Shown here: piece by piece, positions 9,880 to 45,136 of the stretch | Numbering within the stretch: position 1 is the first letter of the stretch | Layout: every line of letters starts with the position of its first letter | Assembly: GCA_000004985.1 (NCBI GenBank) | Contig: GG738881.1 | DNA: 64,000 nt | DNA from: Naegleria gruberi | Lineage: Eukaryota | Reading direction: 5' to 3' (one strand) | Position numbers and translations under genes: made by a program | Notes under the pieces: model-generated | Seen by the model: the letters and a program-made list of their open reading frames with translations, nothing else | Told to the model about the DNA's origin: nothing | Database searches by the model: none

Positions 9880-11668
9880 ATGACATCGGAATCATCATCT
9901 CTATCGACAACAATTCTTGAACAAGTTGATATGCTTAAGGATTGGATTGACCACCATTTAAAACTAATCATTTCGGAAGAGAATAAGGAGGAATTTTTAT
10001 CACTTGTTAGGGAGAAGAAGTGGTTATTGATTGCAACTCCTCCTCTTTTAATGTTCCTCTCATCAATGATCAAATTATATGGAAATTATAGAAAGGTAAA
10101 GCAAATTCCGGGGGGCTTGGCCTTATTCTTTTCACCATTCAAAATTCCATTCCTTGCACCAGTGTTTTATATGGGAAATTGGAATGGAATGATTGAATAT
10201 GCCAATGAAAAGGGTGATGGTGAAGGAAATGTTAGAGTTTCATTTGTTGGATTTAATTATTTCCTTGTCACTAGAGAAAGAGCTCTCATGAAGGAAATAT
10301 TGTTGAATAAGCAAGCCTTTTTGGATAAGCCAAGTATTGTTTATGATATGTTTAATGTTTTTGGAGAGAATATTGTGAGTGCATTGACCATTGATTCATG
10401 GAAAAGACATCATAGAGTATGTAATGCTGCATTCTCAGTGGAGAATTTAAAGTACATGTGTGGACAAGCTTCTAAAGTTACAGATTTGTTGACTGACTTG
10501 TGGGAAGAAAGATTGAAGAATGGAAATGGCGAGTTTATGTTTGATTGTGATGATTTCTCAATGGTTACATTGGAAGTTCTAGGTTTGGCTGGATTTAATA
10601 TGTCATTTGGAGTTTTTGATAAGAATGATGAAAGTGGAGGTAAATTTAAGGATGCTGTGGAGAAGATTTTCACTGTTGGAATGTTGATGAGGAGATTTTT
10701 AGGTGGCACTCCAATACTTTATCCTCTAGCTCAAAGAATATTTGGAGTTTCTCATGCTTTGGAAATTATCAATAAGAAATTGGATGCTGCCATTGAGGAC
10801 AGAAGAAAGGAAATGGAAGAAAATATTGACACTTTTTCAAAGAGTGATATCTTGAGCTTGTTGGTAAAGGCAAACTCTAAGGAAAACCTCCTAACAGATC
10901 AAGAATTGAAGAGCAATACATTAATATTCGTGTTGGCCGGTGAAGAGGTACGTTGGACAATTTACAAATTTGTGTGCTTACTCTTTTATTTGAAATTATC
11001 TTTAGACCACGTCAACCACTTTACAGGTGAGTAGAAATTGATTATGTGGAATTTCTAATAATGAAAGTGGGTCATTTATGAGCTTGCTAAGAATCCTCAA
11101 TACCAAGAGAAGGCAAGGGAGGAAATTGAAAGAGTTCTCTCTGAAAGAATACCATCCTATGATGATTATGATAATTTGGATTTACTTAATTGCATCTTTT
11201 TGGAAACTTTGAGATTACATCCTGCTGCAGCTGGAATTCTCAAACAAGCCAACAAGACCATCACTATTGGAAAGTATACTATTCCAAAGGATACCATTGT
11301 TGATTGCTCCATTGTTGGAGTTCAAACAAGTGAAAGTGTTTGGCCAGAAGCCTCAGTCTTTAAACCAGAACGTTGGCTGGATAGAGAGTTTAGATCTAAA
11401 GCTCAACATGATTATTCATTCCTTAGTTTCTCCACTGGTTTGAGAAAGTGCATTGTAAGTTTTTCTTCTCCGTAACAATTTTACTAAATTGAAATAATTT
11501 AAGGGATTCAATTTTTCAAAAATGGAAGCTTGCATGATTTTGGCAAGAGTATTGAAAAAGTACAAGTTTGAATTGCTTAACAATGAAGCACAAGGAGATA
11601 TTGTCGTTGGTTCTAAAGGAGTAACTACAAGACCAGAAAATCTCAAAGTCAAAGTTACTAAACTTTAA
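9880..11668 (+). CDS. Cytochrome P450 monooxygenase, four exons including a 21-nt micro-exon.
   Basis: The proposed structure is join(9880..10947,11006..11026,11068..11454,11504..11668). The splice reconstitutes the P450 I-helix AGEE-TTSTTLQ-WVIYEL (AGxETT). The heme-binding loop FSTGLRKCIGFNFSKMEA (FxxGxRxCxG) spans the last intron. Donors are gtacgt, gtgagt and gtaagt. Confidence 0.75.
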
Positions 11669-15217: not shown

Positions 15218-16270
15218 TTATTGGTTATTATTATCAAAAGCCTGTCTCACTAATCGAGCTAATCGTTTTTGATGGCCCAGTTTCGTCACTCCCAATGCTT
15301 TAAAGTCATTTTGGTCAACCAAATGTTTAATGTCGGCAAGTATCAACAATTTCTTCTTCTTGAACAACTTTTCATATTCAGATAAATCATTAATTTCCAA
15401 AAATTGTGGAATGGACATATTTTCAATCTTTTCCTTTTTTCCTTCCTCATCTCGTGAGCTGGCCCAATCTAGTGCCTTACTTAATAGCCAAATTCTAAAC
15501 TCTTCTGATTTCTTTATAGAGGGATAGGTTTCAGTATTAATTTGTACAATTACATCCATCAAAATAGAATCAATCCAATGTAGATAATCCTCTTTAGGCG
15601 TCAAGGCATTGTTTAAATCTCTCTCGAACTTTCTAATAAATCTATTAGAAACATTTAATTGACACTCACTGCCATCCCTCAAAAATCTATCACAAATATT
15701 TAAGCATATTCCTCGTAAGCTTTCCTCGGTGACTCTATCTGAGTCAGATGTCATATTATTAGCAATGTTATCAATGAGTTGAATGAAGCTAACCTGTTCA
15801 TCCTTTTGTTGTTGCCTCAGTGATTGAATCAACATTTTCTTTCCCTCCATACAAAAGCAAAACGATTCCAATTTCTTGTAATGTTGAATCACTTGCATTA
15901 CAGAACTAAACTCAGGCGTTTCTGCTTTTGTAAAATTTGAAATACCTTCCTTTGGTATTTCAATACATAGAGACCCACTCTCAATGGATTCAAAAGAAGT
16001 ATCGAGTCTGCCACTCATATCGGCCGAAGCTGAGTTTCTCTTCCCACAAGAAAAGGCCGAACTCAATCTAATTTTCAATCCTGCATTCGAAGAGGTAGGA
16101 GAAGTAGGAGGCGAGCTCAAATACGAAACATCAGAAGAGGTAGGGGAGCTACACGTTGATTCTTCGTCTTTAGTCATATTGAATCGATGGGAGAGGTCAC
16201 TCAATCGAACTGAAATTGATTTACTTCCCATCAGATCACTCCACGATTTCTTGAGAAAGTTTGGTGGCAT
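15218..16270 (-). CDS. Hypothetical Ser-rich protein with a probable C-terminal SAM (sterile alpha motif) domain.
   Basis: It is a 350-aa ORF. The C-terminus SIPQFLEINDLSEYEKLF...LVDQNDFKALGVTKLGHQKRLARL resembles the SAM consensus. Confidence 0.35.
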   Translation of the reverse strand: MPPNFLKKSWSDLMGSKSISVRLSDLSHRFNMTKDEESTCSSPTSSDVSYLSSPPTSPTSSNAGLKIRLSSAFSCGKRNSASADMSGRLDTSFESIESGSLCIEIPKEGISNFTKAETPEFSSVMQVIQHYKKLESFCFCMEGKKMLIQSLRQQQKDEQVSFIQLIDNIANNMTSDSDRVTEESLRGICLNICDRFLRDGSECQLNVSNRFIRKFERDLNNALTPKEDYLHWIDSILMDVIVQINTETYPSIKKSEEFRIWLLSKALDWASSRDEEGKKEKIENMSIPQFLEINDLSEYEKLFKKKKLLILADIKHLVDQNDFKALGVTKLGHQKRLARLVRQAFDNNNQ

Positions 16271-16920: not shown

Positions 16921-19900
16921 ATGTCTAACATGAATATTTCCCAAGACGATGATCGAGAGGATGAATTTTTAAGCTCCATGAGAACGTGGAATACAGACTC
17001 CACCAATACAGGACAGCTAGTTGATGATCCTTTTCTCTCAATGCAAGGAAGCGATAGTAATATTATGGTTTCAGTAAGATTGAGACCAGAAAGCGCTAAA
17101 GAAAAAATTGAGAGAAAAACTAGTACAACTGTTCGTGTTCTAGATAAGAATGTACTTGTTTTTGACCCTGTAGATACATCACAGGACCTTCACCAACGAA
17201 GAGCTCTAGGTTTGAGACGTGGAAAAGAATTAAGGTTTGCATTCGATAGAGTTTTCGATGATACATCAACACAATTAGAAGTTTATCAAAGTACAGCAAA
17301 GGCACTTTTGGAAAGTGTCTTGGAAGGATATAATGCCACCGTGTTTGCATACGGAGCTACTGGTGCTGGTAAGTTGAAAGATATTATTTTATAATTTACC
17401 TTATTACAGGTAAGACATTCACCATGTTTGGCTCGGAAATTAGTGGACCTGGTGTTCTACCTCTTACAATAATTGATATCTTTAGAATGATGGAACAAAA
17501 ACATGACAAGACTTACCGAGTGGCAATATCCTTCTTGGAGGTTTACAATGAAAATATTCACGATTTACTAGTACCACATACTGGAAAGGCAATTAATCAC
17601 GAAATTAGAGAAGACAAAGTGAAAGGAATAATAGTTTCTGGACTTTCTGAACACGTTTGCGAAAATGCTGATCAAGCTTTGGAACTAATTCAACTAGGTA
17701 TTGCTAACAGAACTCAATATGGAACAGCTGCTAATGCTCAATCTTCTAGGTCTCATGCTGTTTTTCAAATCAATGTTCAACAAACTGATAGAACAGCTAA
17801 TATTCAAGCAGATGTAGGAATTGGAAAATTATCATTAATTGACTTGGCAGGCTCAGAAAGAGCTTCGGTCACTAAGAATAGAGGTGCCAGACTTGTGGAA
17901 GGTGCAAATATTAACAAATCTCTGCTTGCCCTCTCGAACTGTATTAATGCACTTGGAAAAAACAAGGGAAAAGGTTATGTTCCATATCGTAACTCTAAGC
18001 TTACAAGACTTTTGAAAGACTCGTTGGGTGGTAATTGCAAAACAGTAATGATTGCAAATTTGAGTCCAAGTTACAGTTGTTATGACGATACATTCAATAC
18101 ACTCAAATATGCCAACAGAGCCAAGAGTATTAAGACAGTAGTCAAGAAGAATATCCACAATGTAAATTTCCATATTTCTAAATATCTGAAAATCATTGAT
18201 GAATTGAGGACAGAAATTAAAGAACTCAAGACACAAGCTCAAATCAAAGAACAAGAGGCTTCCTACATAGACTGTAAGAAGAATGAACAATACGAGAAGG
18301 AAAGGGATTCCACTGAGAAATTGAGAAGTCGTCTCTCTGAAGTTTTCCAAGAACAAATGCAAAATAGAAGAAAACTTCTTGAATTGGAAGAACAAGATAG
18401 ACAAAACTCTCTTCAAATAATGTCAATCAAGAATGATATTGAGCGATGGTCAAGAGAACATCCAAATGAAGAGAAACCATTACGTATTCATACTAGACAA
18501 AAGGATGCTGATACGCTCATAATTGCAAAGAGGGAATATGTTTCCAATAAGGAAGAAATTGAAAAGCGTCTTCAAGATAACATTTCATACACCAAGTCCT
18601 TACAAGATAATATTCCAAAAATGGTTTCCAATAATGAGTTGCGTCAATTAGTGGATCTTCAAGTTAAGGTACATGACCAAGAGATACTCAATCTTGATTT
18701 AGAGAGAATGATCGAACACCACAAATCCAAAGTACAGAGAATGTCACTTATCTTGGAAGATAATCAATATTGCTCTGTAAAGGTATTGGAATATGTACAG
18801 GATATGTATGATCGTCTTAGAGAGACTAACAGTTTAAATCCAGATATTGAAAAATCCTACTCTATGTGTACCACTCTCCTGGACGCTATTGAAAAACAAT
18901 CAACTCTTGATCATGTAAATAATGCCCAATCCCAACAAAATTCACAATCACAGCCACCACCAAACATTGAGACTGACTATGATTCAATGGTTGAAGAAGC
19001 TCTCAAAACTCCAAAATATTTACACAATGGTATCAAGAAAAAGAGAAGAAGCTCTCTTCAATTCTCATCACTCTTCCAACTCTCCTTCCCAAATAATCCA
19101 GAAGAAAGAACTGTTATCAAGCCATCAGAATTTGCTGCAAACAACTCGAAGCCAACCTCAAAAGGTATTAGAGCCAAACGTCCTAAAGACTCACGCCCTC
19201 CAAAGTCTCAATCTTCAGTCAAGTACAATAACTTTTTCTCTGAACCTATTGAAGGTGCCTCTTCTCAACAACAACCACAAATCGATTCCAACTCTGACAA
19301 GACTATTTCTCCTCAGCTATCTCCTCAAATGAGTAATCTTTCCCTCACTGATGCCATAGACAGTGGAGAAATGAATCCAAGCCTTACACCAGATGATGAT
19401 TTAATGATGGACGATGGACAGGAAGTTTTATTCCTCAAAAGACATACAGAGCCAAGAGATGAAGAAACCTATCAATCTCCAACCAAGAAAGGCATAGATA
19501 GCCTTGCACAACGCCACTTTTCTCCACTCAAAAAGGCTTCAGCAGAAGGTATTAATGCTCTCAAGGAAAAGTTTGAAAAATTCAGAACTGACTATATGGA
19601 AGCAAAGAGTGGTGAGGTTAAAACTAGGGTTCGTGTAAAGAAGATTAATCTTTCGCCAACCAGAGAAACTCAACCTCCTCTCTCACCAAATCAACTGAAA
19701 GGTGCTAGAGCTAGAAAATATGATGACTCTAATCCTGAAAAACCTCAAAAGCCAAAGAGTAAGAAGGTTAAATTTGAAGCAACAATAGGTGATTCTCCTT
19801 CTTCCCCTAAACCAGTTCCTGGATATATGGCCTATACTCAATCAGCCCAGCATCGTATTGGAGCAACGACAGCTTCTAAGAAGAAACCACTAGTTCCACC

Positions 19901-20108
19901 AGTGTCTTTCAACTCGGATAATGATTGGATACTCAATTTGAGATCTAATAAGGAAAATAACAATGGACAATCCCATTCCTCTTCTACTTCATCCCTTCTC
20001 TTACACCCTCAACCTAATCCAAACATTCATCACCTCACTGCCAAACCTAGAAAGTCTATTTCCCTCATGCATCCTCAACAACAACCAAACTCACCTAGAA
20101 CGAAATAA
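16921..20108 (+). CDS. Kinesin-8 family motor protein (KIF18/KIF19/Kip3-like), two exons.
   Basis: The proposed structure is join(16921..17368,17410..20108). The intron gtaagt..ttacag splits the P-loop codon, giving [13 protein letters not shown]. The motor motifs [20 protein letters not shown] and [20 protein letters not shown] are present. The overall alignment, including the neck [11 protein letters not shown] and the C-terminal PVPGYMAYT, resembles KIF18A. Confidence 0.85.
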
Positions 20109-20393: not shown

Positions 20394-21239
20394 TTATTGA
20401 GCAGTATTTGGAGTAGAAGGAGAGGTTGCTGTTTTTAAAGCATCCCTTTGTTGTTTAAACTCAGCCATTTCCTTTGTGTATTGTTCCTTATATTTGAGTT
20501 TTGTGCCTTCGTCCAATTCTTTCCATCTCTTGGATGCAAGCTTGGCCATATCATGGGCACTGCACTTTTGATTCATTGCCTGAATTTCAGCCTTAATATC
20601 TGGGCAAACTTCCTTATAAAATCTCATAAATCCTGTTGTTGGAGCACCAGAAAGGGCATTCATTTTCTTCTTGGCTTGTTTGTAGACTTCCATTTGTTTA
20701 GTATATCTTTCCTTCTCTTCTTGAATATAGCTGTAATAGATATTCTTCTCATTTTCGGAAAGCTTGGAAAATCTATCATACAATTCCTTATTAACTTCTA
20801 CAAAAGCTTGATCAGTAATCATCTTCTTTTCAAGCATTTCCTTCTTTACTTCGTTAAAATGTGTGGCGGTATAGATAAGGAATGCTGATGGAACTCTCTT
20901 TGGCCTTAAATCTTCAACAGCTTTGATTTCCTCTTCCCTGGCCTTCCTTCTTTCTTCTTTCAATGATTCCACGGCCTGCTTCTTTTGTACTTTCAATTGT
21001 TGGAGTGATTTTCTGAGTAGATTCACTTCTTCATTGATATCGCTGGAAGTTGTTGCTGGTGTGAAAGTTGTTGAGGTGGTGTTGAACCTCTTAGCCATCA
21101 CAGTGTGGAAACTTCTAAGTTGATGAGTGATACTAAGGATGTTCTTAGATGAGCCAAGAGTTCTGATCATGAGGAGCCTATTCTCCATTTTGCTATTCGT
21201 ATATATTGTTGTTTTTTTAAAGCAAGCCTTAATGCTCAT
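20394..21239 (-). CDS. Dual HMG-box DNA-binding protein with an N-terminal presequence-like region, possibly mitochondrial (TFAM/Abf2-like).
   Basis: There are two HMG-box-like segments (KRVPSAFLIYTATHF... and PTTGFMRFYKEVCPDIK...KRWKELDEGTKLKYKEQY). The N-terminus is basic and hydroxylated with few acidic residues. The start is a genuine ATG. Confidence 0.55.
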   Translation of the reverse strand: MSIKACFKKTTIYTNSKMENRLLMIRTLGSSKNILSITHQLRSFHTVMAKRFNTTSTTFTPATTSSDINEEVNLLRKSLQQLKVQKKQAVESLKEERRKAREEEIKAVEDLRPKRVPSAFLIYTATHFNEVKKEMLEKKMITDQAFVEVNKELYDRFSKLSENEKNIYYSYIQEEKERYTKQMEVYKQAKKKMNALSGAPTTGFMRFYKEVCPDIKAEIQAMNQKCSAHDMAKLASKRWKELDEGTKLKYKEQYTKEMAEFKQQRDALKTATSPSTPNTAQ

Positions 21240-21385
21240 TATTTATACGAACCCCTTCCAACATCCGTAAATTTAATCAATTTCCAATCAATCAAAATCA
21301 AAATAATCATCTCTTCCAATCAACTTAAACTCTTCATCCTATTAACTTGAAATATTCGAATGTAAAATAAAGCAAAAGAGGAAAA

Positions 21386-22881
21386 CTAGTTAATATCACT
21401 AATTCTCTTGGGTATCATTTGTGTAATGTCCATATCTCCTACATTATATCTCGGCTTTTCCAATGTAATTTCTGCCAATTTTTCATTCTCTGCAAAGAAG
21501 GGAACAAAGCCAGTGCCTGATAGCTCAACTCCTGCAATGTGAAAAGATCGATCGAATGCCTTCAATAATCTGTAATCTTGCTTTCCTGCATCAAGTTCAA
21601 AATATCCCAATCCGTTAAGCCAATGACAAAAATCATTCACTTCACTTCTCTTATCAAATTCAATGAGTTCCATTGCAGAATACTTTGAAACTGGAGAGTG
21701 TGAAACAATATCTTTCAATTCCTTTGTGTAATGATAGACTCTTCCTTTTCCTTTCTTGATATCCTTCAAATAGCCTTGAATAGCTGCATTCTTTTCCATT
21801 CTCATTGAGATTGATTTTAAAATTCTCGAAACGAAATGTTGGCAATTACACAGCAAGGGATTATAATTTTTCGTTCCATTGAACAAGCAACAGATCGAAG
21901 CTATCGATTTGAATGCCTCCATTATATCTCTACTATCATTCAGCATGCCCAAATCAATCACTGCAATGGCATTTGTTGTAATAAACTTATTCCTAACAGA
22001 AACAAGTGAATCATTGTACCAATCCAATTGCCACTGTCCAATTATCAAACCAACATGGAATATTCCAAAAGTAGCAGGTATCAGTGTCCCAGCAATACCA
22101 ATCTTCTTATTAATTTGATTTCCAATCTCTGAAATGACCAACTTTACAGACATTCCAGCAGGAGTTTCCAAAGATCTTCTCTCTGGAGTGTGTCTAATTG
22201 GGAGGTAGAAATTTTCATACAAGAATCGATCTTCACAAACCCAATTCTGTACTTCAGCCACAATTTTAGCTTCCTCCAATTTTTTAGCACAAAATTCAAC
22301 TGCTTTCTTTTCCTTTTTAGTTAACATTTCATCTGAGAATAATTGTAAATGATCTTGAGAGAGGGATTCCCAGTCAACTTGTTTTGCAATAATGGAATGG
22401 CTTGGGTTGAGGGAAGTTTCTAATTTGGAATATGGTGTTTCTTTCAAATTCTTGGAACGTTCATAATCTCTATTGATCTTGGCAATTATTACTCTATCAA
22501 AGAATATATTTAATTCATCATCGGAAACTTGAACTTCTTCGTATTCTTTTAATAATTTACGACATTGCTTGATGATTCTCTTTCTTTCACACGAAACTTC
22601 TGTCTGATCATTTCTATGTATCGATTGATGCAAAGATTTAAATTTTAAACCACCAAATATCAAATTCGTAGAGTTTAGTATGGTTTCGAACCTTTCGAAT
22701 AAATCCTGTGGAACCTCCAAATATTTCATTAGAATTATAAAATCACCATGAGTATATTGATAGATGGGAGTTTCAACTATTCGCAATACTTCTGCCTGTT
22801 GTTTATTGCTAGAGTTGGGCGTTGATGATTTACTGTTGGTTGTTACCTTGGATGCTTTTGACTTGCCTGCTCCCATGGTTT
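21386..22881 (-). CDS. N-myristoylation-consensus protein with a C-terminal PPPDE/LRAT-like permuted papain-fold catalytic motif, paralog 1.
   Basis: The likely start is MGAGKSKASK (MGxxxS). The C-terminal half contains FGIFHVGLIIGQWQLDW (His) and, about 70 aa later, YNPLLCNCQHFVSRIL (Cys). This matches the H...NCxHF signature of the PPPDE/DeSI and LRAT/NlpC-P60 families. It is 45-50% identical to the gene at 25723-27311. Confidence 0.5.
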
Positions 22882-23452
22882 CGAATACTGCTTTATTTTT
22901 TACCGTTTCGCATAATGTTAATCTTGTGAAAAGAGACAAGTGCCAGCAAATAACATTATGAAATTTACAATAAAGGAAGAAAACATGAAGACAGAACCTC
23001 TTCAGTATCATCACTGATGAAGTAGCCGAAAGTCTCTAATTTCTAATATTGGAATTTTCATTAATATTCCTCTAGTGCAATAAATATTTCCAAATCCAAA
23101 TCTATTTGATGAGAAATTTGCGAAGAAACTCTTTCCGTCTCCATCATGCTTTGTGAAGAAACCAATTCATCATCACTTCTTTCCATCATGATGTATTTAT
23201 TATTATTAAACAATAATAAAAAACATTCGGGTGATGTTGATGAACGAAAAATATATTTCCCTCTCTCGCATTCTTTAACCCTAACACCACATATGAACCA
23301 TATTATAGAATGATAATATTCAAACAATCATACGCTCAGGGTGAATAATTTTCCTTCCCAAATCTTCCTCAGTTAGTATTGTATTTTTATTTTTTTTTAA
23401 AATTGAAAATCGTAACGGCTATTTGATGAACTTCAAACCAAATTAAAAAGAA

Positions 23453-24931
23453 ATGCCTCGAATTCTTAGCTTCCGTGAGGTGATCAGGAATGATATCGAT
23501 TATGCCTACCATTCCAGCACGACCTTCATCGATACAACCTACAGAAAATCGAATAAATTCATCTCCGATGGCGTTAAACAATTGAAAAACAATTGGAAGA
23601 TGAGAAAGCAAAATAGAGCAGAGAAGGAAATTCATCAGAAAACAAAGGCTTTCGAAAGCGAAAAGTATGCTGAAAAGTTGAGAAAGACAATGCCTAGTTA
23701 TGAAGGTTATGATCCGTATGCTAACTTGGGAGCTGGAGAAAGAATTCCTCATGATGCCTTAGTTTTTGTGCAGAAATCAATTATTGAGTTTTATAGGAAG
23801 GAGTTTGAAAAGTCACTTGATGATTTAAAGATTGCAAAGGTTTTGGATTTTAAATTGGATAATGTTTATTTGTATCATTACTTGGTTGGATATATGAGAT
23901 TTTTGAATGGAAAGTTTGCTAAGTCAATTGAGAGTTATAAGAGAGCTATTGAGTTGATGGATAATGTAGCGTTGGATGATTCAGAGTTGATTGGTTCTGT
24001 AGAAAAAGCAATTGTTGAAATAGAAGACAAGATGAAGCATACCTATGACAAGATCATGGACTATTTCAGTAAGGAGAAATCTACAAAGAAAGAATCGATT
24101 GTTAGCAGGGAAGAGCTTCACTATTGTATTGGTGTGTCATATTTTAGTGTTTCTTATTATAGGGATGCTATTAATCACCTCTCTGAGGCCATTTCTAGTA
24201 TGGAACTCTTGGAAAGAAATCAGGATCTTGATACTTTACTTCATCTTGCTTATTATTATAGAGGATATTCCAATTTTGGTAGTCATTCATTCACAACTGC
24301 TATCGAGGATTTTACAAAGAGTTTAGAGTTCAACAATCAAGACGAGAGAGCTAAACTAATGTTGAATAATTCAATGCAGAGAATGGGAGAAGAGCCAAAT
24401 CAAATTTGCCTTGCACCACCACCAACTGCGTTCCACTATAGATTGTTGAATGAGGAAATAATGGGTCATATCTTTAGCTATTTGAGAATTCACAGCCTTA
24501 GGACTCTCTCAATGACCTGTAAATATTGGAAAATTTTATCCATGAAGAGTTTACTTGATAGAGATTTGTGCATTTTACAATATGAGGAGTTTGTTAAGGA
24601 TCCTGACAATACTTTGAAATATGCAAATGAAAGTTCACTTACGGAAAAGCTCTTCATGCCAAAAAAATACCAATGTGAAATCTACACATTAATATATTAT
24701 GTATTGGAATCACCATTTTTCAAACACTACAAGAAGAAACAACGTGATATACATGTCATGTTTCCAAATTTTATTTGTGCTGTTGGTGGTGCTAATAGTT
24801 ATGTTTCGTACTTTTTTGGAAATTGTAAGAAATTGTACCTTTCCTGCATTACGTTTACTTCTATTTCCTACTATTATAATTCTTTTACTGAAAAGAAATA
24901 TCCAGTTGAGGAATTATTCATCATCAAGTAA
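23453..24931 (+). CDS. TPR-like / F-box-like hypothetical protein. A short 3' exon (about 25028..25264) may follow a gtaagt donor at 24930.
   Basis: It has an ATG start. TPR-like repeats are present (SIESYKRAIELMDN, AINHLSEAISSMEL). An F-box-like segment is present (MGHIFSYLRIHSLRTLSMTCKYWKIL). The ORF ends ...IIK immediately before gtaagt. Confidence 0.4.
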   Translation: MPRILSFREVIRNDIDYAYHSSTTFIDTTYRKSNKFISDGVKQLKNNWKMRKQNRAEKEIHQKTKAFESEKYAEKLRKTMPSYEGYDPYANLGAGERIPHDALVFVQKSIIEFYRKEFEKSLDDLKIAKVLDFKLDNVYLYHYLVGYMRFLNGKFAKSIESYKRAIELMDNVALDDSELIGSVEKAIVEIEDKMKHTYDKIMDYFSKEKSTKKESIVSREELHYCIGVSYFSVSYYRDAINHLSEAISSMELLERNQDLDTLLHLAYYYRGYSNFGSHSFTTAIEDFTKSLEFNNQDERAKLMLNNSMQRMGEEPNQICLAPPPTAFHYRLLNEEIMGHIFSYLRIHSLRTLSMTCKYWKILSMKSLLDRDLCILQYEEFVKDPDNTLKYANESSLTEKLFMPKKYQCEIYTLIYYVLESPFFKHYKKKQRDIHVMFPNFICAVGGANSYVSYFFGNCKKLYLSCITFTSISYYYNSFTEKKYPVEELFIIK

Positions 24932-25722
24932 GTTATCTCACCACACAATTCATACCCAATTTATTCAAGTCATACTAACTTCCAATTTGAGGAGAAGCAA
25001 TTTGCTTTTTTTAATACTTATCCAAATTTGAAACACGTTGCATTTGATATCAGGTCTCAAGATATTAAGCGAGATTTGTATAATCCATATTCTGTTAAGC
25101 TCTCACAAACAATAGATACATTCGAATACAGTGAATCATGTGAAGATTATATGAGAACTTTTGTTATTCCATTTAACTCACACATAACTTTCATAGCCTT
25201 TGAGAAAGGTAGAAAGGTTCCTCTTCCTTCGCCTTTTCTTGAAGAGTACCAAAGTTATTGAATACTCAAACGAAAATGTGTACGTTGTAATTGGTAAAAA
25301 GTAAAAAGGAAGTGGGAGCAATCAAGCACTTTCAGCACTTGATTAGACAGCAACCACCCTTATTCCACTTCCCCGAAAAGATCCGGTTATTGCAGCATGG
25401 TTACTCATGTATCGTTAGCATATTCTGGCGAGTTGAAGAGAAACGTGATTGGAAATAAGAAACTTGTGGTTTTAAAAATAAAATTTTAGAAATATCCATT
25501 CTGGAATGGACTTGTGTTGAATGGACACGCACAGAATGAGGCAACACAATGTTATTCATGTTTAAACTCTGTTAGTCCATAGGTTTTGGACTATTATCAA
25601 ACCGAAATTGAGTGGAAAAGATTGAAAGAGCTATTGATGAGAATGATTATATAAACGGTTCACGATTAGAGCAATATCTTTGAAATTGTAATAAATTCTC
25701 TGGTAATTTACAGTACCATTAT

Positions 25723-27311
25723 TTACAAATCACTCAAGGTATCATTTTCTGAAATTGTACTCGTTCCATCGGTTGCACTACCTGTTCCAGTATTGAGAAA
25801 ACATCTCTCTGGAACCAATTGAGCCAATTCCAAATTCTTCACATTGTAAGTTGGCTTATCGAGTGTAATTTCTGAAATCTTATCCTTGGCAAAGAATGAA
25901 ACATATTTGATTCCATTTTCTTCGTATTCATCGGCTACCCACATTCCCAAAGTGTCATCTCTGTTCATGTGAAAAGATCTATCAAATGCTTTCAAAAGTC
26001 TGTAATCTTCCATTCCAGAAACTGAATCAAAATAATTTAAACCATTCAACCAGTGACAAAACTGATCGAGTTGAATTCTTGTTTCGAATTTGATTTTTGA
26101 AAGTGAGGCATACTTTTCATGATGCACATTATTCACTTTGATCAGTTGTTTCAACTCAGATGTATAATGATAAATTCTTCCTTCCTTTCCCTTCTTGATA
26201 TCTTTCAGATATCTAACAATTGATTTGTTTTTTGGTAAACCAACTTGTATGACCTTCAGTAAAAGGGAAACAAAATGTTGGCAATTACACTTGAATTTGT
26301 CATAGATTTTCGAACCATTGAATTCGCAACAAATCTCAGAAATGTCTTCAAACGCAGCCATGATAGAATTTACGTTTGTCAATGGTTCCAAATCAATAAC
26401 AGCAATGCAACCTTTAGATTGAAATACCTTTTCAGTTGCTCTTCTCACTTTCACCACCGAATGAACATCCCAATCAAATTTCCACTCTCCAACAATCAAA
26501 GAAACATGAAAAATTCCAAACGGAAACAAATTACCCAATTGACCCATTTTTCTATTCGGTCTTTCCTCAATTTCTGTAATCACCAACTTGACAGGCATGT
26601 AAGCATCAGATTGAGGATTCACTCTACTCGTATTATATCTAATAGGAAGATAGAAGGTCTCATATAAAAACCTATCTTTACACACCATGTTCTGAATCAT
26701 TTTTCTAAATTCATTCAAAACAGCTTGATGCATTCCTTCACTTTCATTCTTTAATTCTCTTTCTGGTTCTTGTAATTTTTTACAACAATTATCAAAATAT
26801 TGACATTCTTCTTCTGTTAATCGATCCATTTCGAATAATTCCAAATGATCTTTTGACATTTCAAGTTCTTTAACTCTGCCAGCACTCAAAACTCTTGAAC
26901 CATTAATGTCATATTTCGAATATATTGTAGGATGTTTGTAATTTTTAGTTCTTTCAATGTCCATGTTAATTTTTTCAATTACCACATGATCAAGAAAATT
27001 TTCCAAATCTTGTTTCGTCAATTCAATTCCCATTTCTATTGTCTTTCGAATAATTTTATCTTTTTTACGTTGGATAGAGTATGAATTTCTTCGGAGGATG
27101 GCAACAAATAAACTTTCAAAGTAAGAACCATGTAATTCGTATTTAGAAAATGCTTGACTAAACATTTCTTCCTTTTCAAAATTTAAATATTTCATTAGTG
27201 TGATGAAATCCGAATGTTTGTAGAGGTGAATAGGTTTAGAATCCACGGCTAACTGTTGTGATGGAGTTTCGTCTTGTTTCTTGTTGCTGGCGGATAGTTT
27301 CAAGCCCATAT
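25723..27311 (-). CDS. N-myristoylation-consensus protein with a PPPDE/LRAT-like motif, paralog 2.
   Basis: The likely start is MGLKLSASNKK. It carries FGIFHVSLIVGEWKFDW and KFKCNCQHFVSLLLKVI. It is collinear with paralog 1 along its whole length, including the blocks FYLPIR, YLKDIKKGK, FCHWLNGL and DYRLLKAFDRSFH. Confidence 0.5.
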
Positions 27312-28358
27312 CTTGTGGTTTCGTTCTGATTTTTTTGTGAGTTTTGTGAAAGTTGACATTGGCTAAAAGTAAGAAAAGCATTAGGGCACATTATGCTATT
27401 TAAAATGGTGCCCTTGAATAAACTTGTATCACTGTACCACCTTCTAATAATTTCGAATTGGAAAGAAGACGAATGTTTCCAATTAACAAATTAAAAATTC
27501 AGTTCAGTTATTTCATATTGTAATGTACAACAATAAGAAACCAATTTACTTTTGTTAATCTCAATCTGCAAAGTTGTTAATTACTTCCACTTTTGTTTAC
27601 TTCCATTTATAACAATCTAATTCCCGCCAACAAAATTAAAAAATATATTAAATTAAAAAATGTTGACTTGATCGGAAAGATATGTATCACAAACATGTGT
27701 GATAAATTAAAAACGAAAAGTGTTCGGGATGGTCCATTAATATCGGATGTATTAGCGTGAACCATGTTCGAGCGATCATTTAAAACATGTTTGTTCAAAT
27801 CATTCAATTTGCAATAACGAGAGGATGATTGAAATGAACGTGGTGCACCCGAGGAAGAAGCGAGAGAATCCAACACACCATTACGGCCGTTATCTTGACA
27901 TTTTTATTATCGACAAACGTTACATGAACATTTGTCAATTTACCAACAAATAAGAACGCAACAAAATGTAAAGAGAAGGAGAGCCACTTTATGCTTTGTA
28001 AATATTATTTGTGCTATTTTTGTAGTGTCTGATAATTCTCAATGGTTAGAACAACCCTTAATAGTGTTCATCTCTGACCAAAACAAATTATCAATTGATT
28101 CATCAATTGTTTTTTCAGCGACAGTATAGACACCCTATTTTAGAGTCTTAGCAGATATGGTTATTAATTTGGTGAGGAGGAATTGGAGAGGAACTCTTGG
28201 AGATAGAGTTTGTTGTGTCAGTATCATATTATTCTATGAACTTTCAAGCAATCCGTCATCGATAGGTAAGGCAATCTTGAGAGACTTTTTGAGGGTATTT
28301 CCACTTGCTCACAACTTCATACACACAGAGACTAAAAAGACTCAAAATAACAAACAAA

Positions 28359-31300
28359 ATGAGCGAAATACATACAGAAACGACAGACTCTTCTGGTACC
28401 TCTAAGAGTACCTTCTCGAATAATATGAGGGAAAAGTTTGGAACGTGGATAATGTTGATGAGGAAGGGAAATCCCTCATTGAGCAAACTCTGGTTCATTA
28501 CCAATTTACTGGTAGAAATATACATGTTGTGGTGCGCCATGTTCATACCGACCCTTAAAGATTATAAGTGGGGTTTATATGGGAACTATGTATTTTGGGC
28601 AGCTAACTTTCCCATTGGCTTTCTATTGGACTGGCTTAGCTATTACGATTCAGTAGTAGTAACAATTATATTCTATCTTTTTCTAATAATGTGCTACGCG
28701 ATATTGGCAGTGGCTACATGGAGCAAAGCAAGAGGAAAAAAACATGGACACATCTTTTCGAAAATTCTCACAGTCCTCATGCTCATGTGTCGATTATTCT
28801 TCCCTGCTATTCTGTTTAATATTGTTGGATACTTTGACTGCTCAACAAGTTCTATGATTCCACTGACAGATTTATATTCCCTTAATAGATTTCCAACAGT
28901 GGCATGTGTGGACACACTTAATAGTATTCTGATTTTAATCTCGGTATTTTATTGTATTCTATTGTACATTTTCCTATTGTTATCTGAAATATTAACAATA
29001 GATCTTCATCCAAAGAGTAATAATTTATTCACACGTAATTCATATTGGACGAGTATTGCTATGAGAACAAGTTCATTTGTTGCTATTTTGGTAATGTTTA
29101 CGATTCCAAAAGAGTATGCATTCATCTCAGCAATTGTAAATATTATAACATCAACACTGGTAATGATTAAAACAGTGAGAGGTATACCATTCTATAGAAC
29201 CTATATCAATTCATTAATGTTTGGAGTATCATGTGGATGCATTACAAGCTCATGTGGAACTTTGTTGGCTTTCCTAGTCAATAATTCAGATATGGGAGGA
29301 GATGTATTCAACTACATTGGAATTGGGGTTTCGGGTTTAACGATATTATTGACCATGTTGAGTTTAATTGTTGGATTTGCAGGATTTGAGATTTATCTGC
29401 GGATGATTAGAAAGTGGCTCCTCAAAGAAATTATCAAGCAAATAGATGTCCACAAGAAATATCAAAAGCCAGAAGAAACTACAATAAGCGACAATTTCCT
29501 TCATGTAAATATTTCAGGATTGAAGAGGTCAACAGATGTTCAAGCAGCAGCAATGAGTGACGCAGGTTACAATCAATTTATTCAATATTTGAAAGACTCT
29601 CCTTTCAAGTACAAAAGACCAATACTCCTTCTCTTTCGATTGGATCTGATTAATGAGGAGGTTACTATTGAAAACGGAGAAGAAGAAATTAAACTTCACG
29701 ATATTGTTATGAGATTAGGGAAAGGTATCATTCAAAGAGGATATGAAGATCGCGAAATGTTAGAATCTGTTGCCATGATGTTTGCTTTTTGCCATCATGA
29801 ATCTCAATCATACCTGTCCATAGCCATTGAATTACTGGTTAAAAGTCACAGACATTCATCAATTTTCACACACGGCCTTAGCTCGATTAAAATTAAGGAA
29901 ATACAAAGTTTGGAAGAAGCAGCCAAATCTGATGGTATTGTATCACCTGGATATTTCAAAATCCAAACCATCAAGAAGAATCAAGAGATGATCACTGCTC
30001 TTCATAAGGATTTTTTCAAGGAATTATTAAATGATCCTATCAAGATTTCCAACCTCAAATCAATAATGAGGAAAACCAGTGAACTTTGTAGAACATGTGA
30101 AAATCTATTTAGAACATTGCTATTACATAGAAACAAGCGTATCCTTTATCTGTATGCTAGTTATGTGGAAATTGTGTACTTTGACAAGGAAACAGCCCNN
30201 NNNNNNNNNNNNNNNNNNNNNNNNNNNNNNNNNNNNNNNNNNNNNNNNATGACGATTCGGATGATCCTCTATTTGATGACAGCGTAAGCGTTGGTGGAGG
30301 AGCAGGCGAACTGAAAAAGGACTATTTGTTTAGAAATGCTTTGAAATCATCCAAACCAAAAATTGGAGCCAAATCTTTGCTAATAATTTTTATAGTATTG
30401 GGATTAGTAATGATTGCAACTGCCATTGGCTTTTCAGCTTATCATGGAATTGCAATTAAGAGCAACATTTTCAATTCGAGCATTGTTTGCATTCCACAAA
30501 TTATTTCTGCATCAGTTATCAAAAATATCAGATCAATGCAAAACTGGATCAATATATTTGTATTGTCTGGTTATGAATGGCCAACTGAAAGAAATGGATA
30601 CGAGATGCCTTCACCAAGTGTAAGTGATATTGTTAGTTGAACATACATATGTTAACATTGTTATCAGATATATTTGAGAAATTTCACAGATAGTATTGAG
30701 ACTTCAATTTTCAATATCAGAGAGTTGATAGCATTGGGACAATCTCTTGTGTTTGATGTTTCAACATTAACTTCATACGGTAAATCTATGCATTCATTCA
30801 AAATTCCAAGCGTGAATGGAACTGACGGATTCAATACAAAACAATACATTGGAGAACCAGAAATCAGAAAAGTATCCGTTGTTGAAATTTCTAACTTATT
30901 GATTCAATACATGGACAAACACATGGCTCAATTCCCAGAAACTGACATCTTGAATTATTTCAATTCCACAAGTGAGGCAACAAAAGTAGAAATTCAACAA
31001 AATTTGAAGAATTCAACATTCATGAATCCAGTTAAAGATTATGATTTTATGTTATTATGGCTTAACACACCAATAGCTTCACAAGCATATAAGGATTTTT
31101 GTATTGATTTTGTTGAATTGAGCTCTGATAGTGTTGCCTCACTTCAATATCAATCTCAATATTTCTTCCTTTGTGTTTTAGTATCCTATATTACATTTGG
31201 ATTATGCACGGCTATATATATCATTGTAGAGTTGAGATATATTGATAGATTGATAAAATTATTTGAGAAGGAAATTGGAAAGGATGTTATTGGAAAGATT

Positions 31301-33563
31301 TATCAAAAGTTATCGTCAAAGAATGATACTGAAACTTCATTGAGCACTTCTATACTTACAAAATTTGCTAGATTCGATGCCTTTGTAGTCATTTCAATTC
31401 TTGTCATCTCAATGATAGTGCCACTGATTGTTGGTTTAATTTACTATGAAACAAGTTTTAACATTACAACTGCATTGGTAAACTATGTCGATGTTAAATC
31501 AAGTTTTGAATGTGCACAAACAATGATGTTATCATCATTCTACACTACTGAAATGAGCATCTACTTTGCAATTCCATCTTTGAGTTATTCCACCAAGAAC
31601 CTCAAATATTATGGTCATCCTTATTTCAATTCTCGCTCGTTCTCAGAATTAAGCCTAGAGATAAAACAACAAGCTGATACTGCAAGCGCTAACTGGAATG
31701 ATTTATTATATGGAGATGTTAACAAAACCAATGATCTTCCAGTTTTGGGATCATATCCAACTGTTGATAACCTGCTGTATGGTGAAAAAAACTGTAGCCT
31801 CTATTTACAACAAAGAAATATTCCATTTTCCTATGATTCCTTCATTGAATATTGTCATGGGCTAGAAAATGTAGTGACTGAATACTTGGCACTGACTTCT
31901 GAAGTGACTGAGAATACTAGAGATCATTATCTGACACAATCAAGAAATCCCAATATTATAATAGATCCATTGGATATTTATTTACAACACCATGATCTAT
32001 TCAGAATGTCTCTCCCCCTAACCAAAAAGCTGAAGAGTTTTGTTCGTGAATTTGTTGATTATGCATCAACGCTATCCACTGGATATGTGATTGGAGCAAA
32101 TTTATTTGGATTAATATTTATTGCTTTTCTTTCTTTTATGATTTATACAGTAATGACAAATTATTGGGATACTTTACAAAAAGTAAGAATAATGCTCAAC
32201 TATTTACCTTTGGATACTATTGATAGAAATGATGTATTGAGAAACAACGTGCTTTATCACTCATATCCATCAATAGTAGAAATTAATGTGTTGAATAACA
32301 GCTCAAAAAGAAGTAGCAACAATACATACTTGGAAAACTTGTCAGAATTCATCAATAATCACATTGAAGGAACAGCTGTTCTCAATGAAAAAGGAGAAGT
32401 GGAGGTAATCAATGTTTCAGCTCACAGAATGTTTGGAAGTAAACCTGCAGATATTTTGGGAGCTACATTCTTTAAACTGGTTGAGAATAGTTATTTGGAC
32501 AAGATGAAAAAGACAATGAGTTCATTATGTGAGGCAGCTAAAAAAGCTTCTGAAGCTACCACATCTGAGCAATCAAAATTGACAGACACTATTGAGGTGG
32601 ATTGTTTTAGAATGAATCAAACCAAATTCCCTGCCAAATTATCATTTTTTACCAGTAATATTACAGGAAAGGGAATTATGATTGTTTGCACCATTAAGGA
32701 TATCACTTCAGAGAAGAAACAAAATGCCCTCCTTGCAGAAGAAAAGAAAAATTCTGAAAATCTCTTGAAGAATATATTACCTGAGGGTGTAGCAGCAAGA
32801 TTAAAGAAGGGTGAAACATTCATTGCTGAGAAATTGAATGACATTACATGTTTCTTTTCAGATATGGTTGGATTCACCAAAATTTCAAGCAATATGCAAG
32901 CAACAGATCTTGTCAAAATGTTGAATTATGTTGTGAATGGATTTGACAAATTGACTGAAAAGTATGATTTGGAAAAGATCAAAACCATTGGAGATGCTTA
33001 CTTTGTGGTTGGAGGACTCAAAGGTTCTTCAGACCATCCTGAAAGTATGCTCAAATTTGCAATTGAAACATTTGATGTAATTAAGGATTTCAACACGAAT
33101 GGAACGCTTCACAATGGAGAATTTTTAAATATCAGAGTTGGAATTAACACTGGTTCATGTGTTGCAGGTGTAATTGGTGTAAGTATCATTACAAAAATAT
33201 ATAATTAATATTATTAATTAACTGAATTAGATTAAAAAATTTGCCTATGATTTATGGGGTGATACCATCAATACAGCCTCTCGTATGGAATCAACAGGAG
33301 TTCCCGGAAGGATTCAAATTTCCAGAACAACCTATGAAAGAGTTTATGATTTGGGCTTTGAATTTGATGAAAGACAAGTTGAAGTGAAAGGAAAAGGACG
33401 TATGCAAGCATATCTTCTCAATTCCAAACATCATACCAATCCAGATCCATCTAAATCCACTCCAATTGGAGGTGATGATGCAGATGGTGAGGTGGTAGTT
33501 CAGAAATTAAACCAAGGTCAATCAATGTTCATTGAATCTACTACAATGGAAGAAAACTAAAAA
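28359..33563 (+). CDS. Multi-pass membrane class III nucleotidyl (adenylyl/guanylyl) cyclase with a PAS-like domain. Four exons, with the first interrupted by a 50-N gap.
   Basis: The proposed structure is join(28359..30198,[gap],30251..30619,30668..33178,33231..33563). The gap is of unknown length and the reading frame changes across it. There are two clusters of hydrophobic helices. A PAS-like segment is present (VLNEKGEVEVINVSAHRMFGSKPADILGATFFKLV). The cyclase catalytic core ITCFFSDMVGFT...IKTIGDAYFVVGGL...VGINTGSCVAGVIG|IKKFAYDLWGDTINTASRMES spans the last intron (gtaagt..aattag). Confidence 0.7.
30199..30248. other. Assembly gap (50 N) inside the cyclase first exon.
   Basis: Run of N. 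Confidence 0.95.
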
Positions 33564-35364: not shown

Positions 35365-36926
35365 TTACTCAATGTTAGCAGAGATACTGAGATCAGCTTG
35401 AGTCAAACCCATGTTACCGTTACCAAACAAATTGTGTGGGTCAATCTTTTGCTTGAGACCCTTCAAGATGTCAACACCTTGATCTCTGACAACTTCATTC
35501 ATCCATTCTCTTCTGAGCTTACCAATACCGTGGTGGTGAGACAAACTTCCTCCTTGGAGCAAGATTTCATCTCTGGCTTCAGATTCAATTTCAGAGAAGA
35601 CCTTAATTGGATCACTCAATCCTCTAAAGATGAAACCATAATAGAAGTAGACACAAGCACCAGTTTCATAAGTTTGAGTAACACGAGCAGAAACCCAAGG
35701 AACTGATGGAACACCCTTCTTCTTGGCAGATTCCTTAACTCTTTCTTCAACCTTCTTAATCATTGGAACAATGTTAGACCATGGAACAGAGGTTTCAAAG
35801 CTTTCGGCCATAAAGTAATAATTGAAACCATAATCTCTCAAATAAGCAATAACATAGGTAAGCAAATATCCTCTAGAACCAGCTTCAGCACCAGCCTTAA
35901 GACCACCATACTTGGAAGTAATATCATAAATAATCTTTTGTTGTCTATCAACTTCTTCTTGAGTACCTTCAAAGAGCAATGTGACAACACACATCTTTTC
36001 TGGATCAAAACCACAGACCNNNNNNNNNNNNNNNNNNNNNNNNNNNNNNNNNNNNNNNNNNNNNNNNNNNNNNNNNNNNNNNNNNNNNNNNNNNNNNNNN
36101 NNNNNNNNNNNNNNNNNNNNNNNNNNNNNNNNNNNNNNNNNNNNNNNNNNNNNNNNNNNNNNNNNNNNTCGTGACCAAGAGTCAAATTAAACTTATCCTT
36201 AAGTTCCTTTTGTAATTCAATACCAATAGCACCAGCTTCAATAACAGCAGTATTGGATTCAAAATCAACACTCAAAATACGATCCATTTCTTGAGTATCA
36301 ATAGAAACAATCATTCTCTTTTCATTTTCTGGACAGAGCAAAGCTTGAGTGACGTTAGTACCACCACCATATGGAATAATTGTTAATTGTTCAGGATATT
36401 TAGTAGCAATAGAAACAATCTTTTCAACATGATCGTGTGAATCTGGATAGATGACAACGTCAACAAGTCTCTTGAATTTTCCGTATCTGAGTTGATAAAT
36501 TTCTTGACAACAGTGACCATGGGAGTGCATCAAACGGACTTCATCATCAAAAGACAAATACTTGAAGCAATTAGCTTGTTTAAGTTCATCAACGAATGAT
36601 TTACAAATTACTGGCTTGTGGATCTTTTGTTGCATCTCAGGCCAAGATTGAGCAGGAGAAGCATATCTAGTGTCCAAACCAGTAAAGTTTTCAAACCATG
36701 GACGGAAATCAGGAATACATTTACCAGATAAAACATAACGATCACCAGTAACATAAACGTCCTTCTTTTCATCCATAGTAAAATCGGTATCCTTGTATCC
36801 CCATCCGTTCCACTTGGCCAATTTTTGTCTCTTGTTTGGAATACCAGTACCCATCTTTTCCTTGGACATTGTCAATAGAGTAGGAGAAGTTGGAACGCCA
36901 CCAGCGCAAACATTAGAAGACACCAT
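35365..36926 (-). CDS. Alkyl-dihydroxyacetonephosphate synthase (AGPS; FAD-linked oxidase family), interrupted by a 149-N gap.
   Basis: The N-terminal part contains KWNGWGYKD, the AGPS signature, and the FAD-binding PCMH-type region IIPYGGGTNVTQAL. The C-terminal part (35365..35994) contains HHHGIGKLRREWM, the FAD-oxidase C-terminal motif. The frame is not continuous across the gap, consistent with a gap of unknown length. Confidence 0.75.
36020..36168. other. Assembly gap (149 N) inside the AGPS gene.
   Basis: Run of N. Confidence 0.95.
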
Positions 36927-45121: not shown

Positions 45122-45136
45122 AGAATGATCAATACT

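Follow-up and report, generated by a model that had tools for sequence, protein, structure and literature searches.

Paralogous, divergent PPPDE/DeSI relatives in Naegleria gruberi as predicted membrane-acting cysteine hydrolases

Two nearby, intron-free genes on the minus strand of the window, a 64-kb stretch of Naegleria gruberi nuclear DNA, encode proteins, here called A and B, which are likely to be paralogous cysteine hydrolases acting at membranes, each built from an N-terminal Gly2 available for lipidation, a SAM domain, a PPPDE core and a C-terminal extension. The two proteins align from end to end with 42% identity (E 2e-125), far beyond chance, the His-Tyr-Cys triad of their core is conserved across the family to which they belong, and the core itself is related in both profile and fold to DeSI-1. 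Taken together, comparison of profiles and of modelled folds supports the assignment of A and B as divergent PPPDE/DeSI relatives and predicted cysteine hydrolases.

The gene pair, its family and its N-terminal region

The first-pass annotation had described a collinear pair of minus-strand paralogs that had been duplicated locally on either side of an F-box/TPR gene. The end-to-end alignment and the presence of both open reading frames bear out the pair, and the Pfam matches of the intervening gene bear out its naming (Table 1). The strand given at that stage also stands, the start positions being off by 5 nt in A and 2 nt in B. The sequence of protein A is identical to that of NAEGRDRAFT_50633 (XP_002674952.1, UniProt D2VLV6) in the N. 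gruberi annotation, and its layout from N to C terminus is that of a myristoylation consensus, a SAM-like domain, a helical linker, the PPPDE-like core and the C-terminal extension. The family HMM matches A at E 1e-57 and B at E 2e-58, these being the only two family copies within the window; elsewhere, P0003 and P0004 form a second tandem pair. A functional link of A and B with the F-box/TPR gene was considered and rejected as unsupported, since the two other family loci that were examined lack such a neighbour: none of the genes called in the vicinity of the family gene P0005 of N. lovaniensis is annotated as F-box or TPR, and no F-box/TPR Pfam match was found in the three ORFs flanking the P0007 locus on Logan contig L003. 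In other words, the intervening gene is treated here as a neighbour only.

The wider family comprises 713 clusters at 50% identity (E<=1e-3), with a conserved core at profile positions of about 245-465. The named members sampled are all heterolobosean, among them a protein (P0006) of the brain-eating amoeba Naegleria fowleri, and among such members this large and unstudied family has so far been found only in heterolobosean amoebae. Relatives also carry C2 and PH domains, and the UniRef name 'PPPDE domain-containing protein' is already attached to the paralogues P0003, P0005, P0017 and P0026. In the literature searched, neither the A and B genes nor a SAM-PPPDE architecture is mentioned.

Table 1. 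Positions of the genes and of their recognised or predicted features within the window
Feature	Position	Strand	Details
Gene A	21386..22876	(-)	496 aa + stop, no intron; ORF, translation; MGAGKSKASK... start
Gene A myristoylation consensus	22859..22876	(-)	MGAGKS(KASK); G2, S6; then Lys at 5, 7, 10
Gene A divergent SAM-like domain	22451..22780	(-)	residues about 33-142, ~20-aa insertion; N-terminal profile coordinates
Gene A PPPDE-like permuted papain core	21797..22162	(-)	residues 239-360
Gene A predicted catalytic codons	22055-22057; 21863-21865; 21842-21844	(-)	His274; Tyr338; Cys345
Gene A family-specific C-terminal extension	21530..21796	(-)	residues 361-449; LLKAFDRSF at 21542-21568
Intervening F-box/TPR gene	23453..24931	(+)	492 aa; Pfam TPR_2 2e-11, F-box-like 4e-7
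Gene B	25723..27309	(-)	528 aa + stop from MG start; MGLKLSASNK...
Gene B myristoylation consensus	27292..27309	(-)	MGLKLS; G2, S6; start codon inferred from homology
Gene B divergent SAM-like domain	26944..27240	(-)	residues about 24-122
Gene B PPPDE-like permuted papain core	26236..26607	(-)	residues 235-358
Gene B predicted catalytic codons	26506-26508; 26302-26304; 26281-26283	(-)	His268; Tyr336; Cys343
Gene B family-specific C-terminal extension	25954..26235	(-)	residues 359-452; LLKAFDRSF at 25972-25998

Both A and B have the G2 and S6 of the MGxxxS start that had been claimed for them, and the N-myristoyltransferase (NMT) consensus after Met, G-{EDRKHPFYW}-x(2)-[STAGCN]-{P}, is matched by MGAGKSK in A and by MGLKLSA in B. 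G2 is invariant in an alignment of the six-protein clade. Over the family as a whole an MG start occurs in 55 of 145 members (38%), 35 of these 55 also having S6, a combination far more frequent than expected from composition. A and B are probably N-myristoylated at Gly2, and their anchoring to a membrane is a prediction from the N-terminal consensus which the family-wide G2/S6 enrichment supports. The annotated start of gene A is the MG itself. Gene B has a further ATG in the same frame at 27381, 24 codons (72 nt) upstream of its MG, from which the 552-aa NCBI 'predicted protein' model (P0001) begins, and translation from this codon would abolish the predicted myristoylation of B; alignment with homologues suggests that the true start is the MG at 27309. 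The related contig L002 was considered as transcript evidence for the start codon and rejected, as it consists of genomic DNA that continues into the following gene and so marks no transcript end.

The N-terminal region of about 270 residues, in which no motif had previously been recognised, opens with a divergent SAM domain. The N-terminal profile aligns in hhalign with the SAM domains of family relatives at 88.9% probability (E 2.4e-6; reversed control 0.2%), and a five-helix SAM fold is found together with this profile-profile homology. Neither the N-terminal segments of A and B nor the clade consensus match the Pfam SAM models (PF00536 and PF07647) at E<=10.

The PPPDE-like core and the C-terminal extension

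The catalytic module of both proteins contains the motif FGIFHV, with His274 in A and His268 in B, followed by NCQHFV, with Cys345 in A and Cys343 in B, and the spacing of 71 (A) and 75 (B) residues from His to Cys agrees with the separation of about 70 that was reported earlier. Across 133 family members (B numbering throughout) the core retains K241 in 98%, H268 in 98%, N331 in 100%, Y336 in 100%, N342 in 100%, C343 in 97% and F346 in 100%. The conserved triad is one of His-Tyr-Cys with a Y-x6-C spacing; the His within NCQHF is not kept family-wide, NCQDF and NCQTF being common. The NCQ motif is missing from a few relatives.

The relation of this core to DeSI-1 is one of moderate profile-profile homology across the whole of the catalytic core. 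An alignment of 133 family sequences matches a DeSI-1 alignment in hhalign at 89.1% probability (E 2.2e-6; reversed control 0.2%) over 111 columns, corresponding to DeSI-1 residues 5-119, and matches the single DeSI-1 sequence, which was validated against PDB 3ebq, at 81.5% (E 1e-5). Within this alignment H38, Y101 and C108 of DeSI-1 are in register with H268, Y336 and C343 of B and with H274, Y338 and C345 of A, in agreement with the reading of the His and Cys as catalytic in the first-pass annotation. The modelled folds point in the same direction. The only two high-probability Foldseek matches (0.96 and 0.91, with weak E values of 0.11 and 0.25) are the DeSI-1 entries 3ebq and 2wp7, and the modelled core has a permuted papain alpha+beta fold nearest to solved PPPDE structures, DeSI-1 being the closest of all. 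A domain-only AF2 model of gene A, the pLDDT of which is worse at 62 than the 72 of full-length B, still has DeSI-1, CLN5 and TseH as its structural matches.

Pfam matches to the PPPDE family are weaker. Neither A nor B matches PF05903 (gathering score 29.2 bits) at E<=1, and the family consensus reaches 17.1 bits; PF05903 is nevertheless the commonest Pfam match among relatives, found in 17 of 116 at E<=0.01, every one of these below the gathering score. The best of them, P0015, covers profile positions 3-121 of 151 (E 3e-5, 24.4 bits). HMM searches of PDB sequences with B, with a 6-sequence profile and with a 116-sequence profile returned no relevant structure. The permuted-papain reading of the His and Cys is hence upheld by the DeSI-1 profile alignment, the Foldseek matches to DeSI-1 and the sub-threshold PF05903 matches of relatives, in the absence of a direct PF05903 match in A and B.

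Beyond the core lies a C-terminal extension of about 95 residues with the motif LLKxFDRxF, which is conserved to a degree equal to that of the active site: in the same 133 members F408 is kept in 100%, D415 in 93%, L439 in 98%, K440 in 95%, D443 in 97% and R444 in 98%. The extension falls outside the DeSI-1 alignment in hhalign, and the structural matches of the domain-only gene A model contain nothing interpretable for it. It had been left unseparated from the catalytic module in the first-pass annotation.

Proposed chemistry and its alternatives

A working mechanism for the two enzymes can be put forward from these features. Gly2 would be N-myristoylated, with lysines 5, 7 and 10 next to it in A, and the SAM domain would probably strengthen attachment to the membrane through self-association or binding to a scaffold. 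In the permuted papain core, which belongs to the NlpC/P60 cluster, His268 may activate Cys343 with Tyr336 completing the centre (B numbering), such that catalysis would pass through an acyl-enzyme thioester on Cys343, and the invariant Lys, Asp and Arg of the extension motif may shape substrate binding or regulation. The predicted reaction is the stripping of an acyl group (an S-acyl thioester) or of an isopeptide-linked modifier from membrane-proximal proteins. Efficient S-depalmitoylation in vitro is reported for PPPDE1, PPPDE2 and CLN5, whose catalytic centre is His-Tyr-Cys (PMC9012467). We marginally favour thioesterase/S-deacylase over isopeptidase chemistry for A and B.

The isopeptidase reading, in which A and B are membrane-tethered deSUMOylases or deubiquitylases akin to DeSI-1, DeSI-2 and Desi3a, perhaps within a ubiquitin-system cluster, is possible but somewhat unlikely. 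It draws on DeSI-1 being the closest solved structure, on the presence of the F-box/TPR gene between A and B, and on the substrates reported for relatives: DeSI-1 is described as a deubiquitylase for hydrophobic and transmembrane proteins (PMC13596326), and plant Desi3a as deSUMOylating the receptors FLS2 and BRI1 (PMC6281677, PMC9942830). However, the cleavage of SUMO precursors by PPPDE1 and PPPDE2 is reportedly very low, and PPPDE2 is reported to have no deubiquitinating activity, while their thioesterase activity is high (PMC9012467). Moreover, the F-box adjacency is missing at the two other family loci examined, adjacency of genes being in any case weak evidence in eukaryotes, neither A nor B showed a recognisable motif for binding ubiquitin or SUMO, and DeSI-1 has nothing that corresponds to the extension of this family.

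It is improbable that A and B are LRAT/PLAAT-type acyltransferases or phospholipases, in which Cys343 would move an acyl group from a phospholipid to water or to another lipid, and of the two families named in the first-pass annotation it is PPPDE which is borne out by profile and fold. The case for LRAT lies in the resemblance of NCQHFV to the NCEHFV of PLAAT3, in weak Pfam matches over the NCQHF region (A, E 0.38; B, E 0.88; P0010, E 0.006), in an hhalign probability of 46.9% with PLAAT3, and in CLN5, a structural neighbour here, which is also reported as a lipid transacylase (BMP synthase). These matches to PF04970 amount to 11.5 bits in A and 10.3 bits in B against a gathering score of 24.3, and membership of the family is rejected; one relative in 116 matches LRAT at E<=0.01, as against the 17 that match PPPDE. 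The proposed alignment of the His and Cys with a HRASLS-type protein, PLAAT3, extends over only 18 columns around the Cys. The PLAAT3 triad is His23/His35/Cys113, the second His standing about 12 residues past the first, and in the present family 87% of members have a Trp at the column 12 residues past His268. The second His of the Cys-His-His triad of LRAT proteins (PMC10318531) is in other words missing, the His of NCQHF is not kept across the family, and no long hydrophobic stretch can be read in the sequence of either C-terminal tail. That A and B are non-catalytic scaffolds, with a fold kept for binding and an incidental MG start, is very improbable indeed: divergence from PF05903 is great, large lineage-specific expansions often hold inactive members and the NCQ motif is lacking in those few relatives, but His, Tyr and Cys are 97-100% kept over 133 members and intact in both A and B, and the enrichment of G2 with S6 far exceeds what composition would give.

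Returning to the membrane-acting hydrolase, a broader proposal, which we hold as tentative and rather doubtful, is that A and B belong to a lineage-specific heterolobosean toolkit of PPPDE enzymes tethered to membranes by myristate, SAM, C2 or PH targeting, which would serve in reversible protein S-acylation or lipid deacylation and not in the removal of SUMO or ubiquitin, the LLKxFDRxF extension being an unrecognised substrate-binding or regulatory domain. The known depalmitoylases of the APT and ABHD17 groups are serine hydrolases; were the toolkit to exist, it would constitute a second, cysteine-based depalmitoylase system beside them. The physiological chemistry of PPPDE/DeSI proteins is itself disputed between deSUMOylase, deubiquitylase and S-depalmitoylase, and a branch that is expanded and furnished with membrane-targeting modules (the myristoylation consensus, SAM, C2 and PH) therefore offers a natural test of this fold on membrane-proximal acyl and isopeptide substrates, to which the conserved C-terminal extension adds a new handle on specificity. 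The family is present in N. fowleri, with no member sampled from outside Heterolobosea, and were it to prove essential, it would offer a candidate target selective for the parasite. In annotation, the gain is a fold and domain assignment for two 'predicted proteins', a start codon in gene B that probably needs correction, and a PF05903 model that may be extended or else joined by a new family model.

Relation to known systems

Relative to SAM domains such as those of aveugle/Hyphen and CNK2, that of A and B differs in that about 20 extra residues precede its last helix and in its lack of a Pfam SAM match. With LRAT/PLAAT proteins (HRASLS; PF04970; PLAAT3, 4fa0) the likeness is that of a permuted NlpC/P60 core with His before Cys, an NC(E/Q)HF(V) motif and a Tyr 7 residues before the Cys; A and B are unlike PLAAT in the 18-column extent of the similarity and in having neither a second catalytic His nor a C-terminal membrane helix, and no PLAAT structure is among their structural neighbours.

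CLN5 (PDB 6r99), a PPPDE-like cysteine S-depalmitoylase of the lysosome, is such a structural neighbour, with no sequence similarity detected between it and A or B. Its location is lysosomal (PMC9012467), whereas A and B have an MGxxxS start and a SAM domain and are without an evident signal peptide; the start and the SAM domain together point to the cytosolic face of a membrane.

The nearest known system is PPPDE/DeSI (MEROPS C97, PF05903; DeSI-1, 3ebq and 2wp7), with which A and B have in common a circularly permuted papain core, and of which DeSI-1 is both the best profile-profile and the best structural match. The PPPDE catalytic centre is His-Tyr-Cys, namely His38, Tyr101 and Cys108 in DeSI-1 (PMC9012467). 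The order and spacing of these residues are the same in A and B, the Tyr lying 7 residues before the Cys in both systems, and the surrounding motifs G-I-W/F-H-T and N-C-x-x-F are similar. A and B share about 18-20% identity with DeSI-1 and are three times its length, and what they carry beyond it is the myristoylation consensus, the SAM domain, the helical linker and the 95-residue LLKxFDRxF extension.

The gene pair and its neighbourhood

Genes A and B are uninterrupted reading frames whose proteins align end to end with 42% identity (E 2e-125), as expected from the first-pass annotation, which had called them collinear minus-strand paralogues; the start coordinates it gave lie out of frame, by 5 nt in A and 2 nt in B. 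The MGxxxS start that it had claimed is seen in both proteins, as are the FGIFHV and NCQHFV motifs, placed by it ca 70 residues apart, with His-to-Cys spacings of 71 (A) and 75 (B) residues. Protein A matches XP_002674952.1 (NAEGRDRAFT_50633, D2VLV6) exactly, and B has 100% identity to an annotated N. gruberi 'predicted protein'. No third copy was found within the 64-kb window, which is N. gruberi nuclear DNA, has a GC content of ~34% and contains assembly gaps.

The gene between the pair does indeed encode TPR and F-box domains, as confirmed by Pfam. No such neighbour was found at two other family loci inspected, and this gene provides no usable evidence on the function of A and B. Of the remaining features, the reading frames at 45125-54494 (very long) and across 42.4-43.4 kb are artefacts of the N gaps. 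The kinesin motor-domain match begins at Pfam profile position 92, and its missing N-terminal part is probably encoded by the ORF at 16921-17394, with a short intron in between. Further downstream, a multi-pass membrane ORF with a weak TmcB-type TPR match is followed by a PAS and adenylate/guanylate cyclase ORF; the two are probably a single large membrane cyclase gene split by the 50-N gap at 30199-30248, with perhaps an intron as a further interruption.

Features of the window (positions in nt)
Feature	Position	Strand	Remark
Cathepsin C (papain family with exclusion domain)	5906-7351	+	ordinary eukaryotic gene
Cytochrome P450 fragment	9880-11034	+	ordinary eukaryotic gene
Separate 350-aa protein	15221-16270	-	canonical C-terminal SAM domain (SAM_1, E 3e-8); ~5 kb from gene A
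Kinesin gene	16921-20108	+	
Two-HMG-box protein	20394-21239	-	ordinary eukaryotic gene
Gene A	21386-22876	-	496 aa
F-box/TPR gene	23453-24931	+	between A and B
Gene B	25723-27309	-	528 aa, counted from MG start
Membrane ORF and cyclase ORF	28305-33208	+	probably one gene
ThiF/E1-like protein	40640-42004	-	ordinary eukaryotic gene
EGF/teneurin-like repeat protein	54795-57713	+	ordinary eukaryotic gene
Assembly gaps (N runs)	30199-30248, 36020-36168, 42409-43406, 45137-54455		

The catalytic core

Of the two Pfam families named at first pass, PPPDE (PF05903) gave no match in A or B and LRAT (PF04970) gave sub-threshold matches confined to the NCQHF region. Among 116 relatives PF05903 is the commonest Pfam match (17/116, best E 3e-5; profile positions 3-121 of 151 in the relative P0015), with LRAT matched in one only, all of these being below the gathering score. 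The family core profile, a 133-sequence alignment numbered here by the residues of B, was compared with human DeSI-1 and PLAAT3 (HRASLS3), the sequences of which are identical to PDB 3ebq and 4fa0. It aligns with DeSI-1 as a single sequence over 112 columns (81.5% probability, E 1e-5) and with a vertebrate DeSI-1 alignment over 111 columns (89.1%, E 2e-6), against 12 columns for the reversed alignment as a control (0.2%, E 0.25). The match to PLAAT3, the other alignment foreseen at first pass, is limited to 18 columns around NCxHF (46.9%, E 2e-4).

In the DeSI-1 profile alignment His38, Tyr101 and Cys108 fall on His268, Tyr336 and Cys343 of B, bearing out the anticipated register of His and Cys. 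Across the 133 members these three residues are conserved at 98%, 100% and 97%, respectively, and N331, N342 and F346 at 100% each. The proposed H...NCxHF arrangement therefore stands as regards the catalytic His and Cys, but not the motif's own His, which is not conserved in the family, NCQDF and NCQTF being common. Moreover, the column of the second catalytic His of LRAT is Trp in 87% of the members, such that the LRAT Cys-His-His triad is absent. In other words, the original choice between PPPDE and LRAT narrows to PPPDE, with its 111-column match and triad in register.

Structure prediction, also proposed at first pass, gave an AlphaFold2 model of B (six-sequence alignment) with a pLDDT of 71.6, and 80-92 across most of the core. 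Its only Foldseek hits of meaningful probability are 3ebq (0.96, target-normalised TM 0.49) and 2wp7 (0.91, TM 0.47). C92-type and YiiX-type permuted NlpC/P60 proteins are also listed with the model.

Flanking regions and distribution of the family

Gly2 is invariant in the six-protein clade around A and B and present in 55/145 (38%) of the family members that begin with Met; position 6 is Ser in 35 of these 55 (64%), in line with the classical N-myristoyltransferase consensus. Protein A is annotated as starting at its MG, and its N-terminus, MGAGKSKASK, has lysines at positions 5, 7 and 10, a pattern resembling the myristate-plus-basic motif at the N-terminus of Src. The NCBI model (P0001, 552 aa) places the start of B at an ATG lying 24 codons further upstream (extra stretch 27310-27381, minus strand), which would remove the myristoylation signal. 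Since these 24 residues are not conserved and are absent from all homologues, we infer the MG start for B, the upstream start being probably mis-called.

Where the first-pass annotation recognised no motif, in the N-terminal region, a SAM-like domain is found. Pfam detects no SAM domain in A, B or the clade consensus; ~31 of 154 family relatives have one at the same position (SAM_2 in P0031, E 3e-10), with which the clade N-terminus profile aligns at 88.9% (E 2.4e-6; reversed control 0.2%), with a ~20-residue insertion ahead of the last helix. C2 domains, PH domains or a second catalytic module are present in other relatives. Two NCQHF modules occur in P0008 (N. gruberi, 893 aa), a C2 domain downstream of the core in P0015 (679 aa) and PH domains in two members. 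Some have very long N-terminal regions; the whole P0017 protein (N. lovaniensis) measures 1778 aa. Beyond the core, residues ~359-452 of B are modelled as helices and short strands, and this extension includes positions conserved to active-site level in the 133 members (G374 95%, F408 100%, D415 93%, L439 98%, K440 95%, D443 97%, R444 98%).

A word-indexed homologue search returned relatives from Naegleria only, N. fowleri included, two of them already named 'PPPDE domain-containing protein' in UniRef. An exhaustive HMM search, seeded with the alignment of six proteins, gave 713 clusters (50% identity) at E<=1e-3, 350 of them at E<=1e-10, sharing profile positions ~245-465, that is, the catalytic module and ~95 residues downstream. 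Twenty clusters were looked up; the ten with organism labels are all heterolobosean (Naegleria gruberi, N. lovaniensis, Willaertia magna, Acrasis kona, Pharyngomonas kirbyi), and the other ten are contigs from metagenomes or read archives that bear no organism label. Two further paralogues, P0003 and P0004, carry consecutive accessions (EFC41105.1, EFC41106.1) on one N. gruberi scaffold (351,708 bp), such that tandem pairs recur, with at least a second in this species. A 1702-bp contig labelled 'metagenome' (ENA ERZ929261) is near-identical to 21230-22920, where gene A lies; the flanks differ by a few single bases and indels. This points to N. gruberi itself, or a strain very close to it, as a source of reads in that sample.

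Chemistry and relation to known enzymes

The best-supported reading of these sequences is that A and B are active PPPDE-type cysteine hydrolases. Cys343 would act as nucleophile, with His268 as base and Tyr336 as the third member of the triad, in a protein held at the membrane by the predicted myristate; the basic residues of A would add to this attachment, as possibly would SAM-mediated assembly. Thioesterase/S-deacylase and isopeptidase chemistry are both candidates. The former is marginally favoured, by the membrane-targeting theme of the family and by the precedent of PPPDE1, PPPDE2 and CLN5, which in vitro are efficient S-depalmitoylases with poor UBL protease activity (PMC9012467). Among the UniRef entries for vertebrate DESI1, many now bear the name 'palmitoyl-protein hydrolase', thioesterase activity having thus entered the automated naming of the canonical family. 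Removal of ubiquitin-like modifiers is a tentative alternative, in keeping with the reported deubiquitylation of hydrophobic proteins by DeSI-1 (PMC13596326) and the reported deSUMOylation of receptors by plant Desi3a (PMC6281677, PMC9942830). Lipid acyl transfer of the LRAT type is improbable, given the short PLAAT3 match, the Trp in place of the second His, the single Pfam match against 17 for PPPDE and the Foldseek hits; a pseudoenzyme is most improbable with a triad that is almost invariant.

The fold and catalytic type of A and B are already known, and automated annotation labels some paralogues as PPPDE-domain proteins, A and B still being 'predicted protein'. Neither the architecture (myristoylation consensus, SAM, helical linker, PPPDE-like core and conserved extension) nor the large expansion in Heterolobosea is described in the searchable literature. 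In its core the family differs from LRAT, with its Cys-His-His triad, and has the same His-Tyr-Cys centre as DeSI-1, described for PPPDE proteins and CLN5 (PMC9012467).
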